Shown in pieces: positions 1,355-10,795 of a stretch of DNA of 32,000 nt (position 1 is the first letter of the stretch; each line of letters starts with the position of its first letter). A program made the position numbers and the translations under genes. The stretch spans positions 30,001 through 62,000 of the forward strand of contig NZ_CP045650.1 of assembly GCF_009557235.1 (NCBI RefSeq). The letters run 5' to 3'. A model generated the notes under the pieces. The model was not told where the DNA came from, searched no databases, and saw only the letters and a list, made by a program, of their open reading frames with translations. This DNA comes from Acinetobacter wanghuae (GTDB lineage: Bacteria > Pseudomonadota > Gammaproteobacteria > Pseudomonadales > Moraxellaceae).

Positions 1355-2551
1355 ATGAATCATTTCTATGTAGGTGCAATGTTATGTCTGGGTTTGACTT
1401 CTTATCAACTGACAGGCTGTCAGGCACAGGACAAAACCGCTAAAGAAAAAATTGTGAACCAAGAGCAGGCAAAACCAATCCAGCAATCTAATGCTGCTTC
1501 ATCTGTCACTCAAACACAGCAAACTTATAAAGTCAGTAATATCGCGCAATTTAATGAACCATGGGCAATGGCTGCTTTAAAGGATGGGCGATTACTGATT
1601 ACTGAGCGAAAAGGCACATTACAATTATTTAATCCACAGACGCGTCAAAAAGTCGAAGTAAAAGGTGTGCCTAAAGTTGCTTATGGTGGACAAGGTGGTT
1701 TGGGCGATATTGTATTACATCCTCAATTTGCACAGAATCATCAAGTGTATATCAGCTATGCAGCAGCAGGGCAGGCAGGCTATGGCGCTGTCGTCGCACG
1801 TGGTGAATTAGATTTATCGAATTCCACATCGCCACAACTCAAAAATGTAAAAACCATTTGGGAACAAGTGCCTAAGGTAGATGGTCAGGGACATTATTCG
1901 CATCGAATGTTATTTGGTAAAGATGGCAAACTTTGGATCAGTTCTGGCGAGCGTCAAAAATTTGAGCCTGCACAAGATTTACAATCGAATTTAGGCAAGG
2001 TTTTAAGTTTAAATGATGATGGTACACCTGCAGCGGGCAATCCATTTGTACAGCAAGGTGAGATCGCAAAACAAGTTTGGAGTTTGGGTCATCGTAATCC
2101 TTTAGGGATTGCACTCGATCATAAAGACCAACTTTGGGTGGTTGAAATGGGACCTAAAGGTGGTGATGAGCTAAATGTAATCGTAAAAGGCGAAAATTAT
2201 GGTTATCCGCTGGTTTCTGATGGTGATCATTATGATGGCAAGGGAATCCCAGATCATCATACACAACCGAAGCTGAAAGCGCCTGAAATGACTTGGACCC
2301 CCGTTATCTCACCCTCAAGCCTGATCTTTTATAAAGGCAATCAATTTCCTGCATGGAAAAATAAGGCACTGATTGGCGGTTTGTCTTCGGAAGCCATTAT
2401 TGTTGTGGATACAGAAATGAAGCCCGTACAGGAAGTTCAGCGTTTAAATATGCAACAACGTATTCGTAGTTTGCTTGAAGCAGAAGATGGTTCAATTTGG
2501 GTATTAGAAGATGGTAAAAATGCTCAATTACTTAAAATGACGCCGCAATAA
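1355..2551 (+). CDS. PQQ-dependent sugar (glucose/sorbosone-type, YliI-like) dehydrogenase, lipoprotein
   Basis: Lipobox LTGC after a signal peptide. Beta-propeller family motifs GHRNPLGIA, GPKGGDELN and NYGYP are typical of soluble aldose sugar dehydrogenases. Confidence 0.85.
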   Translation: MNHFYVGAMLCLGLTSYQLTGCQAQDKTAKEKIVNQEQAKPIQQSNAASSVTQTQQTYKVSNIAQFNEPWAMAALKDGRLLITERKGTLQLFNPQTRQKVEVKGVPKVAYGGQGGLGDIVLHPQFAQNHQVYISYAAAGQAGYGAVVARGELDLSNSTSPQLKNVKTIWEQVPKVDGQGHYSHRMLFGKDGKLWISSGERQKFEPAQDLQSNLGKVLSLNDDGTPAAGNPFVQQGEIAKQVWSLGHRNPLGIALDHKDQLWVVEMGPKGGDELNVIVKGENYGYPLVSDGDHYDGKGIPDHHTQPKLKAPEMTWTPVISPSSLIFYKGNQFPAWKNKALIGGLSSEAIIVVDTEMKPVQEVQRLNMQQRIRSLLEAEDGSIWVLEDGKNAQLLKMTPQ

Positions 2552-2572
2552 ATTTTCTAATTTGATTAATCA

Positions 2573-2604
2573 GCCCTTATTTTTATCGAAAAGTGGGGCT
2601 TTTT
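2573..2604 (+). terminator. rho-independent terminator of the dehydrogenase gene
   Basis: Imperfect hairpin gcccttatttt/aaaagtggggc followed by TTTT. Confidence 0.6.
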
Positions 2605-2684
2605 AAATCATTTGTCTTAATGATGCTGCATCACGTGGCATCCTGTTTTGAATATTCAGTTTCTTTAGATAAGAGCTAGATAAG

Positions 2685-2809
2685 AAAAAACCCCGACATC
2701 CTGTCGAGGTTTTTCAGATCTTTTGTTTAGAGATATAACTCCTGTCATATCCATCAGCATCCTGCTGCCTTATTTATTGTTTTTATTTCAAGACATCCTG
2801 TCTTGCTAT
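2685..2809 (-). ncRNA. Csr/Rsm-type (CsrA-sequestering) small RNA, copy A, about 125 nt
   Basis: Minus-strand hairpins at 2789-2805, 2755-2767, 2732-2751 and 2691-2709 display ACAGGAUGU, GCAGGAUGC, ACAGGAGU and ACAGGAUGU at their tips. The last hairpin is followed by U6 and acts as a terminator. A TATATT -10 lies at 2816-2821 and a GacA-like box at 2866-2883. No ORF is present. Confidence 0.75.
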
Positions 2810-2815
2810 GAAACT

Positions 2816-2883
2816 AATATAATATTTTATATGAGATACGTATAGCCTCAAATGTCGGCGTGTGATGTAGGTAAATGCTTACA
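2816..2883 (-). promoter_or_regulatory. promoter of sRNA copy A: -10 TATATT plus upstream GacA/UvrY-type palindrome
   Basis: The minus strand reads TGTAAGcatttaCCTACA (2866-2883), an 11/12 match to TGTAAG-N6-CTTACA. It is followed 44 nt later by TATATT (2816-2821). The predicted TSS is the A at about 2809. Confidence 0.65.
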
Positions 2884-2946
2884 CTATTGTTTGATTACTG
2901 TGCAACATAGCAAAATTTTAAAAAGCTTAGATACTATTCATGATGC

Positions 2947-3085
2947 AAAAGAAAAGCCCCAACATCCTGTTGAGGCTTTTCTGGATTTGCTTTGCAGATT
3001 TGACTCCTGTCGAATCTGTGAACATCCTGTTCAATGACGCTTTTTATTATGATTTGATCGCTTAGCTAACATCCTGTTTGGCTAT
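2947..3085 (-). ncRNA. Csr/Rsm-type (CsrA-sequestering) small RNA, copy B, about 139 nt
   Basis: Minus-strand hairpins at 3064-3083, 3019-3033, 2995-3018 and 2956-2976 display ACAGGAUGU, ACAGGAUGU, ACAGGAGU and ACAGGAUGU at their tips. The last hairpin is followed by UUUUCUUUU. The promoter layout is the same as for copy A. Confidence 0.75.
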
Positions 3086-3091
3086 GAAGCT

Positions 3092-3159
3092 AATATAATC
3101 ATTTAACCCTGTATGCCATAGCCGATATATACGGTAGCCAATGTAGGTTAAAGCGTACG
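3092..3159 (-). promoter_or_regulatory. promoter of sRNA copy B: -10 TATATT plus degenerate GacA/UvrY-type palindrome
   Basis: The minus strand reads CGTACGctttaaCCTACA (3142-3159), a 9/12 match to the consensus. It is followed 44 nt later by TATATT (3092-3097). The predicted TSS is the A at about 3085. Confidence 0.55.
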
Positions 3160-3174
3160 AGAGTGTCAGCTTTT

Positions 3175-3717
3175 TTAGGCACTCACATATTGAATGAGTT
3201 TATCGACCGATAACTTTAAGGCTTTATTATCAAAATCATTAGCTTGGAAAGTCTGATCTTTATTACGTGAGAAAATATCTCGAATCTCAATCACGGCATT
3301 GGTATCTACTAAGCCGAGTTGAGTGCCGACCTGACGAATTTGGTCAATAGAACGCGATCCATTGGTTGCGCCATAACCAACATAAGCCGCGGGTTTACCC
3401 TGCCATTCTTTGCCTAAGTAATCGAGTGCATTTTTAAGCGCAGGGCTATAGCCATGGTTATATTCAGGACTAATGAAAATAAATGCATCTGCTAATGCAA
3501 TTTTGTCCGCCCATGCTTGTTGTTTGGGTTGATCATAAATGCCAGTCAGTGGTGGATTAGCACCGCTAAAAATCGGTAGATCCCACTCTTTTAGATCGAT
3601 TATTTCAGTTTCAATAGTGGCAAAGCCATAACTTTGGATTTGATTGAGTACCCAATCTGCAACTTTAATAGCAGTACGACCCTCACGGATACTGCCGACC
3701 ACAATATAAATTTTCAT
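3175..3717 (-). CDS. NADPH-dependent FMN reductase family protein
   Basis: MKIYIVVGSIREGR flavodoxin-like N-terminus and ISPEYNHGYSPALKNALD motif. Start moved to ATG 3717, preceded by AGGAAAA; the longer ORF (to 3804) lacks an RBS and runs into the upstream terminator. Confidence 0.85.
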   Translation of the reverse strand: MKIYIVVGSIREGRTAIKVADWVLNQIQSYGFATIETEIIDLKEWDLPIFSGANPPLTGIYDQPKQQAWADKIALADAFIFISPEYNHGYSPALKNALDYLGKEWQGKPAAYVGYGATNGSRSIDQIRQVGTQLGLVDTNAVIEIRDIFSRNKDQTFQANDFDNKALKLSVDKLIQYVSA

Positions 3718-7772: not shown

Positions 7773-8774
7773 TTAAAAGGGAAATGTTGGGGTATTCCGA
7801 CGAAACTCAAGGAGCTTGTCGACGTCATCATCAATTCCAGCTTTCAAAGCTTCAAGCGAAGGATAATTCTTTTCGCCATGTAAATAGTTTAAGAACGTCA
7901 CCCGCATTAACAGGCCATACAGATTAGCAGAAACATCGGGGAAATGTACTTCTAATCGCCATTCTGGATGCTCTTGTTTGATGGCAGGACGCGTTCCGAC
8001 ATGACCTGCACCAAATAGCGCAGTCGGGGCGTAACCCATAATGCCATGTTGAGTCGAATCATTGGCTTGAACTTTCGCGCTTAACGATTCAGTCTCGCAG
8101 ACAACGTCCACTGCATAAATGCCATGCAAGCAGGGTTTATGTCGGTTTAAACGCACATTAATGGTCGGGAAATTAATGGTTCGACCAATTTGATCGCCGT
8201 ATTGTACTCGACCAGTAATACTATAAGGACGACCCAATAATTGTGCTGCAAGTGCTAAATCGCCTGCTTGCAAGGTTTGACGAATACGGGTTGAACTGAC
8301 ACGCTCACCATCTAAACGAATCGTCGATAAATTCGTCACGTCAAAACCAAATTCACGTAAAAATTCACTATTGCCCTGACGGTTTTTACCAAAGTGAAAA
8401 TCATCGCCTAAGACCAGATGTTCTGCATTGAGTTTGTCTTTTAAAATGTCGGCAAATGCTTCTGCAGTGAGGCTACGGAACGTATGATCGAACTTTGCGA
8501 CTGCAATATAGTCCACACCGAGTTCCGTTAAGTATTCGACTTTTTCACGTAACGATGAAATACGAGGCGGGGCATCATAAGCTTTAAAGTATTCAAGTGG
8601 TTGCGGCTCGAAAATCATGACCACAGTTTTTAATTTTTGTTCATCTGCCACAGCTTTCAGCTGTTTAATCATGGCCTGATGACCCAAATGTACACCGTCA
8701 AAATTGCCAATCGTCACGGCAGTTTTTTCTGACAGCGAATGGGTGTTTAAAGCATTCAGGCGGAGCAGCTTCAT
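7773..8774 (-). CDS. ribF: bifunctional riboflavin kinase / FMN adenylyltransferase
   Basis: GNFDGVHLGHQ nucleotidyltransferase motif, a C-terminal riboflavin kinase domain, and a conserved position upstream of ileS. Confidence 0.95.
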   Translation of the reverse strand: MKLLRLNALNTHSLSEKTAVTIGNFDGVHLGHQAMIKQLKAVADEQKLKTVVMIFEPQPLEYFKAYDAPPRISSLREKVEYLTELGVDYIAVAKFDHTFRSLTAEAFADILKDKLNAEHLVLGDDFHFGKNRQGNSEFLREFGFDVTNLSTIRLDGERVSSTRIRQTLQAGDLALAAQLLGRPYSITGRVQYGDQIGRTINFPTINVRLNRHKPCLHGIYAVDVVCETESLSAKVQANDSTQHGIMGYAPTALFGAGHVGTRPAIKQEHPEWRLEVHFPDVSANLYGLLMRVTFLNYLHGEKNYPSLEALKAGIDDDVDKLLEFRRNTPTFPF

Positions 8775-8981
8775 GGGCGAATCAAGTGCTTAGAAAGATC
8801 GAGAGGCTATATATTGCCATAATCTTAGCGTTTCGTCTTGTTGTTGTGTTTTTAGACAATAAAATTAATGAACTCAGGATATTTATATCAATTAAAATGA
8901 TATAAATGATAAATATTAATCAATTTTATTTATATAAATAGCTTTGTATGATGTGCTTATAGTCTTTGATGAGCAACTGCG

Positions 8982-10115
8982 ATGAAAAAGCCTTTTCAGC
9001 AACTGAAACAGCGTGGTGACATAATCCGTCAATTTACCCCAAATTGGTTTACCGTCACTATGGGAACTGGGGTTGTGGCACTGATTATTGCAGAATTACC
9101 CATCGCATCAGCGTTTTTTTGGCAGCTGGGTAATGGACTTTGGCATTTTAACATACTGCTTTTTATCTTTTTTACTGTGTTATACGCATTACGTTGGATT
9201 AAATATCCAACCGAAGCCGCACAGGTGTTGAGTCACCCAACCATGAGTTTATTTTTGGGTGCAATTCCGATGGGGCTTGCAACCATTTTAAATGGTTTTC
9301 TTAAATTTGGTGTAACTCTTTATGGTGATGTCGCGGTTCAGATTGCTGAAAGCTTATGGTATATCGATGTGATTTTGGCAGTGCTCATTGCGTGGGCTGT
9401 GCCATTTTTAATGTATAGCCGCCAACAACATCAATTACACAGCATGACTGCAGTATGGTTACTCCCCATTGTGGCGTGTGAGGTTGCAGCAAGTAGTGGT
9501 GGCTTATTGCTACAACATTTAGAAGTGAGCCAACATGCGGTTATGATTTTACTGGGTAGCTATGTGTTGTGGGGCATTTCAGTTTTACCTGCCTTTGCCA
9601 TTTTAACCATTCTGATGCTGCGTTTAGCGATGCATCAATTGCCTGCAAAGGATATGGCCATCAGCAGTTGGCTTGCCCTCGGTCCAATTGGAACAGGTGC
9701 TTTGGCATTGCTGCTTTTAGGTCAGCAAGCGCCTCAAGTCCTTGCTGTGGTTGAGCTGAAACAGGTGGGTGAGTTCTTTCAATATGCAGGTATGTTTGGC
9801 AGTTTAATTTTATTGGGCTTTGGTGTGTGGTGGTTAGGTATTGCGATTTTGACCACTATTCAGCATCTAAAAACAGGCTTGCCGTTTAATTTGGGTTGGT
9901 GGGGACTGACTTTTCCGCTGGGTGTATTTACGCTTGCCGTACTCAATGTTGCTGCGCAAACAGGTGTCAATGGAATTACCCAGATAGGCTATGCCTTAGC
10001 AATTTTACTCATTGGGCTTTGGTTCATGGTCATGGCAAAAACAGTGCACGGTTTTTATTGCGGTACATTGTTCTTTTCACCTTGCTTAAAGCGTTACTTA
10101 GAACAAAAAGCATAA
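8982..10115 (+). CDS. TDT family (TehA/Mae1-like tellurite-resistance/dicarboxylate) transporter
   Basis: About 10 TM helices and an N-terminal NWFTVTMGTGV motif characteristic of the TehA/SLAC1/Mae1 family. Confidence 0.75.
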   Translation: MKKPFQQLKQRGDIIRQFTPNWFTVTMGTGVVALIIAELPIASAFFWQLGNGLWHFNILLFIFFTVLYALRWIKYPTEAAQVLSHPTMSLFLGAIPMGLATILNGFLKFGVTLYGDVAVQIAESLWYIDVILAVLIAWAVPFLMYSRQQHQLHSMTAVWLLPIVACEVAASSGGLLLQHLEVSQHAVMILLGSYVLWGISVLPAFAILTILMLRLAMHQLPAKDMAISSWLALGPIGTGALALLLLGQQAPQVLAVVELKQVGEFFQYAGMFGSLILLGFGVWWLGIAILTTIQHLKTGLPFNLGWWGLTFPLGVFTLAVLNVAAQTGVNGITQIGYALAILLIGLWFMVMAKTVHGFYCGTLFFSPCLKRYLEQKA

Positions 10116-10228: not shown

Positions 10229-10795
10229 ATGTCTGATTTTGCTTTAATTATGGCATTGCCCAATGAATCGAAAGGCTTATTTGAAGCTGAAGGGATTGAA
10301 GTCCATTACAGTGGCATTGGTAAAGTCAATGCAGCATTTAAAGCTTTTGAAATTATTCAAAAAACCGGCTGTAAAACTTTAATCAATTTAGGCTCGGCGG
10401 GCAGTTCGTATTTTGATGCGCATTCATTGGTTGAAGTAAGTGAGTTCGTACAACGTGATATGGATGTATCACCGCTTGGATTTGAGGTGGGTGTGACACC
10501 CATGGATGATGAGTATCCTGCTGGAATTCAGCTTGAAAGTTTCTTTGAATATTTACCGAAAGGTATATGCGGTACTGGAGACAGTTTTGAAACGGGTCTG
10601 CCTAAAGTACCGTGTAACTTAGTCGATATGGAAGGCTACGCAATCGCTAAAGTGTGTAAAAAACTCGGTGTTCGATTTGTCTCGGTCAAATATATTACCG
10701 ATGGTGCGAACGACACGGCACATTTAGATTGGGAAGAAAACTTATTATTGGGTGCAAGGAAGTTATTATCGTTATATCAAACGGTCAAAATCTAG
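10229..10795 (+). CDS. MTA/SAH-nucleosidase-like nucleoside phosphorylase (PNP_UDP_1 family), short form
   Basis: GSAGS and VDMEGYAIAKVC...ITDGAND motifs resemble Pfs/MtnN, but at 188 aa it is shorter than canonical Pfs. Confidence 0.7.
   Translation: MSDFALIMALPNESKGLFEAEGIEVHYSGIGKVNAAFKAFEIIQKTGCKTLINLGSAGSSYFDAHSLVEVSEFVQRDMDVSPLGFEVGVTPMDDEYPAGIQLESFFEYLPKGICGTGDSFETGLPKVPCNLVDMEGYAIAKVCKKLGVRFVSVKYITDGANDTAHLDWEENLLLGARKLLSLYQTVKI

Follow-up and report, generated by a model that had tools for sequence, protein, structure and literature searches.

Conserved GacA/UvrY-type upstream palindromes at two tandem putative CsrA-titrating sRNA genes of Acinetobacter wanghuae

In E. coli (csrB/csrC with UvrY), Vibrio (csrB/C/D with VarA) and Legionella (rsmY/Z with LetA), a BarA/GacS kinase acts through a UvrY/GacA regulator on sponge sRNAs and, through these, on CsrA (partly described in PMC1488887). 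GacA's upstream activating sequence (UAS) is TGTAAG-N6-CTTACA, and it lies at about -75 in the case of P. aeruginosa rsmY (PMC4950607). In P. brassicacearum NFM421, the tandem genes rsmX-1 and rsmX-2 are 75% identical and each have their own UAS, and differences between the two UASs have been proposed as the cause of an 8-fold difference in expression; tandem rsmX genes also occur in P. fluorescens F113, P. stutzeri and P. syringae (PMC7911923). Within the genus Acinetobacter, Kulkarni et al. 2006 predicted rsmX, rsmY and rsmZ with a conserved 'rsmY upstream site' in Acinetobacter sp. ADP1 (PMC1488887). A. baumannii has GacS/GacA (PMC5295007) as well as the CsrA-binding sRNAs CsrB, CsrC and CsrD, and its CsrB was enriched in CsrA immunoprecipitation (PMC13516227, PMC13643297). 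In the literature that we reached, control of the Acinetobacter sRNAs by GacA has so far the standing of a hypothesis (bioRxiv 10.1101/2021.08.11.455981).

We analysed a 32-kb stretch of A. wanghuae DNA (the window), in which the minus strand of positions 2400-3400 was read directly for promoter elements. The locus found there very probably comprises two tandem, anciently duplicated genes for CsrA/RsmA-titrating sRNAs with rsmY-type promoters, and GacA is their likely activator.

Two tandem GGA-hairpin RNAs on the minus strand

Two units, a gene-proximal sRNA B and a distal sRNA A (Table 1), lie between an FMN reductase gene and a convergent PQQ-dependent dehydrogenase gene downstream. The RNAs are ~125-135 nt in length, and folding gave four hairpins each, the last of them a strong stem with a U-run after it on the minus strand. 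The preliminary description had assigned three GGA hairpins and a GGA terminator to both copies. This proved correct for copy A, which carries GGA in all four hairpin loops (fold z = -6.0), whereas the minimum-free-energy fold of copy B (fold z = -3.9) shows GGA loops in three hairpins; the first hairpin of sRNA B is absent from that fold and is defined by homology, with a mismatch. Read on the plus strand, the loops would give UCC. A terminator scan also returned plus-strand sites at the sRNA hairpins, which we rejected as the same palindromic GGA stems, with U-runs 3' of them on the minus strand (folding).

Table 1 Features of the sRNA locus in the window and multi-copy loci of the same family in other Acinetobacter
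Feature	Position	Strand	Remarks
sRNA A	2685..2809	minus	predicted start A2809; terminator stem-loop 2685-2715
sRNA B	2951..3085	minus	predicted start A3085; terminator stem-loop 2952-2980
Box A	2883..2866	minus	TGTAAGcatttaCCTACA (= TGTAAGCATTTACCTACA); upstream palindrome of distal sRNA A
Box B	3159..3142	minus	CGTACGctttaaCCTACA (= CGTACGCTTTAACCTACA); upstream palindrome of gene-proximal sRNA B
-10 hexamer TATATT, sRNA A	2821..2816	minus	direct reading; conserved column in family
-10 hexamer TATATT, sRNA B	3097..3092	minus	direct reading; also listed by promoter scan
GGCTAT block, promoter A	2842..2847	minus	about -38..-33
GGCTAT block, promoter B	3118..3123	minus	about -38..-33
NADPH-dependent FMN reductase gene, 180 aa	3175..3717	minus	99% identical to A. 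wanghuae protein
Family sRNA genes, locus L033	5636, 7437, 9264, 9967		multi-copy locus
Family sRNA genes, locus L035	5636, 7950, 8677		multi-copy locus
Family sRNA genes, locus L001	5635 and 6436		multi-copy locus
Family sRNA genes, loci L048, L053, L054, L056	near 8600-9250		multi-copy loci

A covariance model (R1) was built from the RNA part alone of 34 units of many species, with both window copies in the seed. It predicts 22 base pairs; compensatory changes occur in 15/22 of these, and the GGA loops hardly vary. Within the window, sRNA A matched it with 120.6 bits and sRNA B with 117.1 bits, scores that are partly circular because both copies are seed members; relatives outside the seed score 52-145 bits, and nothing else in the whole 32-kb window scored above 22.3 bits on either strand. 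These matches lie on the minus strand, and together with the minus-strand U-runs they bear out the order of box, -10 hexamer, GGA hairpins and terminator that had been proposed for that strand.

Searches at the Rfam gathering thresholds gave no match anywhere in the window. RsmY (RF00195) aligned with copy A only, over 2687-2809, at 20.1 bits (E = 0.021) against a gathering threshold of 57, a score below that for membership in RsmY or the Csr/Rsm clan CL00106; since this weak RsmY match is all that was obtained and nothing reached gathering level, the RNAs are filed under no Rfam family. At permissive E-values, ctRNA_p42d, Thr_leader and MicC also appeared and were discarded as chance, terminator-driven matches. 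As judged by folds, covariation and the covariance model, what lies downstream of each box is an intergenic sRNA gene whose product repeats GGA in its loops and ends in a rho-independent terminator. We infer from these sequence features that the RNAs bind CsrA, which would make both of them sRNAs of the CsrA/RsmA-sponge type.

Units A and B are about 56-61% identical, and their RNA parts are 61% identical in the family alignment. By comparison, the closest match of sRNA B is the gene-proximal (first) copy in A. lwoffii, at 83% identity, and sRNA A reaches 73% identity with the distal A. schindleri copy. A close or recent duplication was ruled out by this low identity and by the closer orthologues elsewhere, and the identities indicate that A and B are old paralogues, each nearer to its orthologue than to the other copy. 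Because each copy has orthologues in several species, the duplication predates speciation. The B-then-A order is common to A. thermotolerans, A. schindleri, the metagenome-assembled genome (MAG) L036, A. lwoffii and A. pseudolwoffii, with extra sequence between the B and A copies in the last two.

Upstream of the reductase gene lie ribF-ileS-lspA-fkpB, and farther along the window the ssu operon, argA, ubiG, dsbA, rph, nadC and ampD complete an ordinary Acinetobacter chromosome. None of gacA, gacS and csrA lies within the 32-kb window, and their presence in this genome is therefore assumed from the genus. On the minus strand, the first terminator reached after the FMN reductase stop codon at 3175 is that of sRNA B (stretch 2952-3175), so the reductase mRNA may extend across box B and have the GGA hairpins in its 3' UTR.

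Several smaller features accompany the locus. A 42-aa ORF is called over sRNA A in two A. wanghuae assemblies (L084 2459-2587; L086 2138-2266), and a 61-aa plus-strand ORF (window 2852-3037) lies opposite the sRNA locus, in antisense orientation; the two are apparently spurious ORFs called where the DNA encodes non-coding RNA. At window positions 2622-2650, the hairpin GATGCTGCATCACGTGGCATC is followed by a T-run on the plus strand and has the appearance of a terminator for the convergent PQQ-dehydrogenase gene; its minus-strand reading, ACAGGATG, is another GGA motif just downstream of sRNA A. Beyond the dehydrogenase gene, about 1.5 kb from the sRNA pair, lies a gene for a GGDEF diguanylate cyclase (239-1225, plus). 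In Pseudomonas, the c-di-GMP and Gac/Rsm pathways are linked.

Promoter elements and their conservation across the genus

Measured against TGTAAG-N6-CTTACA, box A matches at 11/12 positions and box B at 9/12, and against the genus consensus TGTAnG-N6-CnTACA the counts are 10/10 and 9/10. In copies A and B alike, the gap between the box and TATATT is exactly 44 nt, and after each hexamer comes the common block AG(T/C)TTCATAGC, in which the A 7 nt downstream of the hexamer is the predicted start; relative to it the box spans -74 to -57 in both copies. Box B begins 16 nt past the FMN reductase stop codon. Direct reading thus confirmed what the preliminary description had reported of the two boxes and their match counts, of the hexamers and their 44-nt distance, and of the shared block with its A, the start itself being a prediction.

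Allowing at most one mismatch, TGTAAG-N6-CTTACA occurs once in the 32 kb, as box A, against 0.11 expected. At up to three mismatches, 15 matches were found and 15.5 expected in the 32 kb, which is chance level for this Pseudomonas consensus, so that the sequence of box B carries no significance by itself; its support is its position and its orthologues. Two further palindromes with 2 mismatches, TGTAATATTTTAATTACA and AGTAAGTGAGTTCGTACA (296-313 and 10435-10452), are located in the GGDEF gene and in a nucleosidase-like gene. We rejected them as boxes: they lie within ORFs, no sRNA-like sequence follows them, the covariance model is silent there, and about one match with ≤2 mismatches is expected from base composition.

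Neither promoter had been credited with an obvious -35, and this held, the -35 hexamers proposed by a promoter scan not being conserved. The candidate ATGGCA for promoter B was dropped because it lacks conservation in copy A and in other species, and the pair TTGAGG-16-TAAAAT for promoter A, 8 nt upstream of TATATT, because it is conserved neither in copy B nor in other species. Ungapped comparison of the two promoters gave 14/18 identical positions in the box, 6/6 in the -10 hexamer, 6/7 in the discriminator and 6/6 in a GGCTAT block, against 12/38 (about 32%, close to random) over the other 38 nt between them. Such identical patches amid otherwise randomised sequence resemble functional sites. 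The GGCTAT block is the same in A and B, and its C-T columns are conserved across the family in an alignment of 41 promoters. Its distance of 20 bp to the -10 hexamer is not that of a canonical -35, and it may be the site of a second factor or an unusual polymerase contact.

We examined conservation with the FMN reductase gene as anchor, in 80 loci from about 50 Acinetobacter species; A. wanghuae is absent from these 80, and six A. wanghuae contigs were compared separately. Synteny across the 80 loci identified the reductase gene as the conserved upstream neighbour of the sRNA locus. Nearly all of the loci have a palindrome of the same form after the reductase stop codon, and in nearly all species the box start is 14-36 nt past this codon; in orthologous loci the first GGA hairpin comes 83-84 nt after the box start. 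When 41 non-redundant promoters were aligned without gaps, anchored on the box, information was high only at TGTAnG, CnTACA, TATA(G/T)T, CATA, the first hairpin and the C-T block near -36. The family -10 consensus, TATA(G/T)T, occupies a fixed column, and since the ungapped alignment keeps the hexamer in register, the spacing from box to -10 is constrained.

Over 54 loci, the covariance model returned 73 plus-strand genes, 69 of them non-redundant. A palindrome with ≤3 mismatches lies 72-75 nt upstream of the RNA start in 65/69 genes, whereas the same test at random positions in the same loci gave a background of 0.7%. Eleven of the 65 boxes are perfect, 24 have one mismatch, 19 two and 11 three. 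Measured from the box start, the RNA start lies within the 72-75 nt range in all 69 genes and at exactly 74 nt in 47/69. Box and sRNA thus co-occur across the genus. The identical 44-nt spacing to which the preliminary description had drawn attention is real, but it is a family-wide constraint and not peculiar to this pair. Conservation of the palindrome in orthologous loci, which that description had left as a check on its reading, is established by the same 65/69 genes from about 50 species. The set also takes in family paralogues at other positions in the loci, such as the four copies of L033 (A. amyesii), and the palindrome therefore marks further sRNA genes in the anchor loci of other Acinetobacter species. 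These results, together with the rsmY-like position of the boxes, strongly support the original proposal that GacA/UvrY-type upstream activating sequences probably stand at fixed spacing before both putative CsrA-sponge sRNA genes, transcribed on the minus strand from a probably activator-dependent promoter.

In many Acinetobacter species, the 5 kb or so downstream of the same reductase gene hold two to four family genes, all with a palindrome of their own (multi-copy loci, Table 1); the window holds only two. Among loci L003-L028 (A. lwoffii and relatives), many draft contigs stop 2.5-3.1 kb downstream of the FMN reductase gene, and these fixed contig ends suggest a repeat or an assembly break in that clade.

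Within A. wanghuae, boxes A and B are invariant in the six contigs, while their flanks carry SNPs. The closest other species, Acinetobacter sp. NCu2D-2 (L087, CP015594.1, 2044-2480), has copy A only, with the perfect box TGTAAGCATTTACTTACA, and unrelated sequence in place of the absent copy B.

Box B had been described as the weaker of the two, from which different expression of the copies was suggested. A genus profile built from 55 distinct family boxes showed that this was overstated. Position 5 (A/C/G = 0.45/0.36/0.18) and position 14 (T/G/C = 0.50/0.29/0.20) are nearly free, so two of the three mismatches of box B are tolerated variants, and on this profile box A scores 21.4 bits and box B 21.8 bits, both near the family median. 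What stands is that the change of T1 to C, the sole unusual one in box B, is rare: C occupies position 1 in 4/55 boxes. All four belong to B-type orthologues, and C1 of box B is therefore a lineage trait and not recent decay; like box B, the boxes of the B-type genes in A. thermotolerans, A. schindleri, L036 and A. pseudolwoffii begin with CGT.

Alternative readings and the proposed mechanism

Could the palindromes be chance matches, or RNA or DNA hairpins such as the terminator of the upstream gene? Matches with ≤3 mismatches do occur at chance frequency in the window, and palindromes can in principle form hairpins. As RNA, however, the boxes fold at only -1.7 and 0.0 kcal/mol and have no U-tract, the box of copy A follows an sRNA terminator and not a coding gene, and 65/69 family members have their box at 72-75 nt as against the 0.7% background. 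Positions 5 and 14 are complementary in 28/54 boxes (20.3 expected by chance) and positions 4 and 15 in 41/54 (39.6 expected), counts that argue against any pairing constraint on the boxes. Conservation together with the folding and pairing tests leaves this reading a negligible probability, and it is effectively refuted. A conserved operator could also be bound by another regulator, a LuxR/NarL-type response regulator or a genus-specific factor, perhaps with a partner that recognises GGCTAT. Such a regulator would suit the departure of the genus consensus from the Pseudomonas one at the degenerate positions 5 and 14, and the presence of GGCTAT as a second conserved block at about -38 to -33, where no canonical -35 exists. 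Moreover, the A. baumannii "GacA" adjoins a different sensor kinase, GacS being thought to have co-opted GacA (PMC5295007), and we found no GacA-dependent sRNA expression in Acinetobacter in the literature reached. On the other side, 10/12 consensus positions are kept, the position at -74 to -57 and the GGA-loop sRNA target are those of GacA/UvrY sites in other Gammaproteobacteria, and box A agrees with a Pseudomonas rsmY UAS even within the spacer. Given this match in sequence, position and type of target, another regulator is unlikely.

A further reading concerns copy B alone: its box would be a decaying relic and sRNA B mainly a read-through RNA derived from the reductase 3' UTR, leaving only the copy A promoter GacA-dependent. 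Box B does lie 16 nt past the stop codon, and the first terminator after the gene is that of sRNA B; its three mismatches to the classical consensus are at chance level by themselves, copy B is lost in the close relative NCu2D-2, and the first hairpin, mismatched by homology, is missing from the minimum-free-energy fold. Against this, promoter B still has its box, GGCTAT, TATATT and discriminator amid sequence that is otherwise only about 32% identical to promoter A, box B is invariant in the six A. wanghuae contigs and equals box A in its genus-profile score, and the distance of the box is unchanged in B-type orthologues of at least five species. We therefore regard this reading as very improbable. 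Read-through from the FMN reductase gene may add to sRNA B expression.

In the preferred reading, that of two GacA-activated sponge sRNA genes, each promoter would lack a usable -35 and consist of an 18-bp palindrome (about -74 to -57), a TATA(G/T)T -10 hexamer and a start on the A of CATA. A dimer of phosphorylated GacA (UvrY/SirA/VarA-family) most likely binds each palindrome and, from its fixed distance, would recruit or activate sigma-70 RNA polymerase. A GacS/GacA signal would thus raise both sRNAs, and their GGA loops would sequester CsrA and relieve the mRNAs under its control.

A and B may also be an ancient sub-functionalised pair and not redundant copies, a possibility that we find doubtful. 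B may then respond at a different GacA~P threshold or receive a GacA-independent read-through input, since C1 is kept in the B lineage of at least five species and no terminator separates the FMN reductase gene from sRNA B; the A lineage has retained a near-perfect box. If this were true, and GGCTAT were the site of a second factor, CsrA titration in Acinetobacter would be under graded, multi-input control.

Significance and comparison with known systems

We regard the locus as an ordinary, if well-supported, case of a regulatory design already known, which will not surprise the specialist and leaves the understanding of the Gac/Csr system unchanged. What it would add is a sequence-level anchor in Acinetobacter for the proposed GacS/GacA-sRNA-CsrA cascade. 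A genus-specific box consensus, TGTAnG-N6-CnTACA at -74, has been gained, as has a covariance model for a family of sRNAs missed by Rfam 15, over which gene callers sometimes place a spurious 42-aa ORF. With these, the genome-wide annotation of Csr sRNAs and the design of gacA-dependent reporters become straightforward.

The regulatory logic proposed here is that of the E. coli, Vibrio and Legionella systems, which differ in having longer RNAs (CsrB) or boxes of other sequence or at another distance. Closer in phylogeny are CsrB, CsrC and CsrD of A. baumannii, reportedly the subject of Singh et al. 2025, which share with the present sRNAs the genus and the CsrA-titrating role, here predicted, a likeness by description and not by sequence. 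The same kind of likeness, extended to the upstream site, holds for ADP1's rsmX, rsmY and rsmZ, whose reported flanks differ from the FMN reductase and PQQ-dehydrogenase context found here (PMC1488887).

The closest resemblance is to Pseudomonas rsmY and rsmX, which have the same 18-bp palindrome at about -75, lack a good -35 and give a short sRNA with GGA loops whose terminator also contains GGA. With the rsmY UAS of P. fluorescens SS101, TGTAAGCATTCTCTTACA, box A agrees at 15/18 positions, some of them in the spacer (PMC4353343). Unlike Pseudomonas rsmY, the Acinetobacter RNA stays below the Rfam RsmY threshold (20.1 bits against 57), and its promoters have a consensus that is degenerate at positions 5 and 14 and an extra GGCTAT-like block near -36. 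As with rsmX-1 and rsmX-2, the locus carries two tandem, diverged Rsm-type sRNA genes, each with its own putative UAS. In contrast to that pair, the copies described here are more diverged (about 56-61% identity), their duplication precedes speciation, and their boxes score alike on the genus profile.
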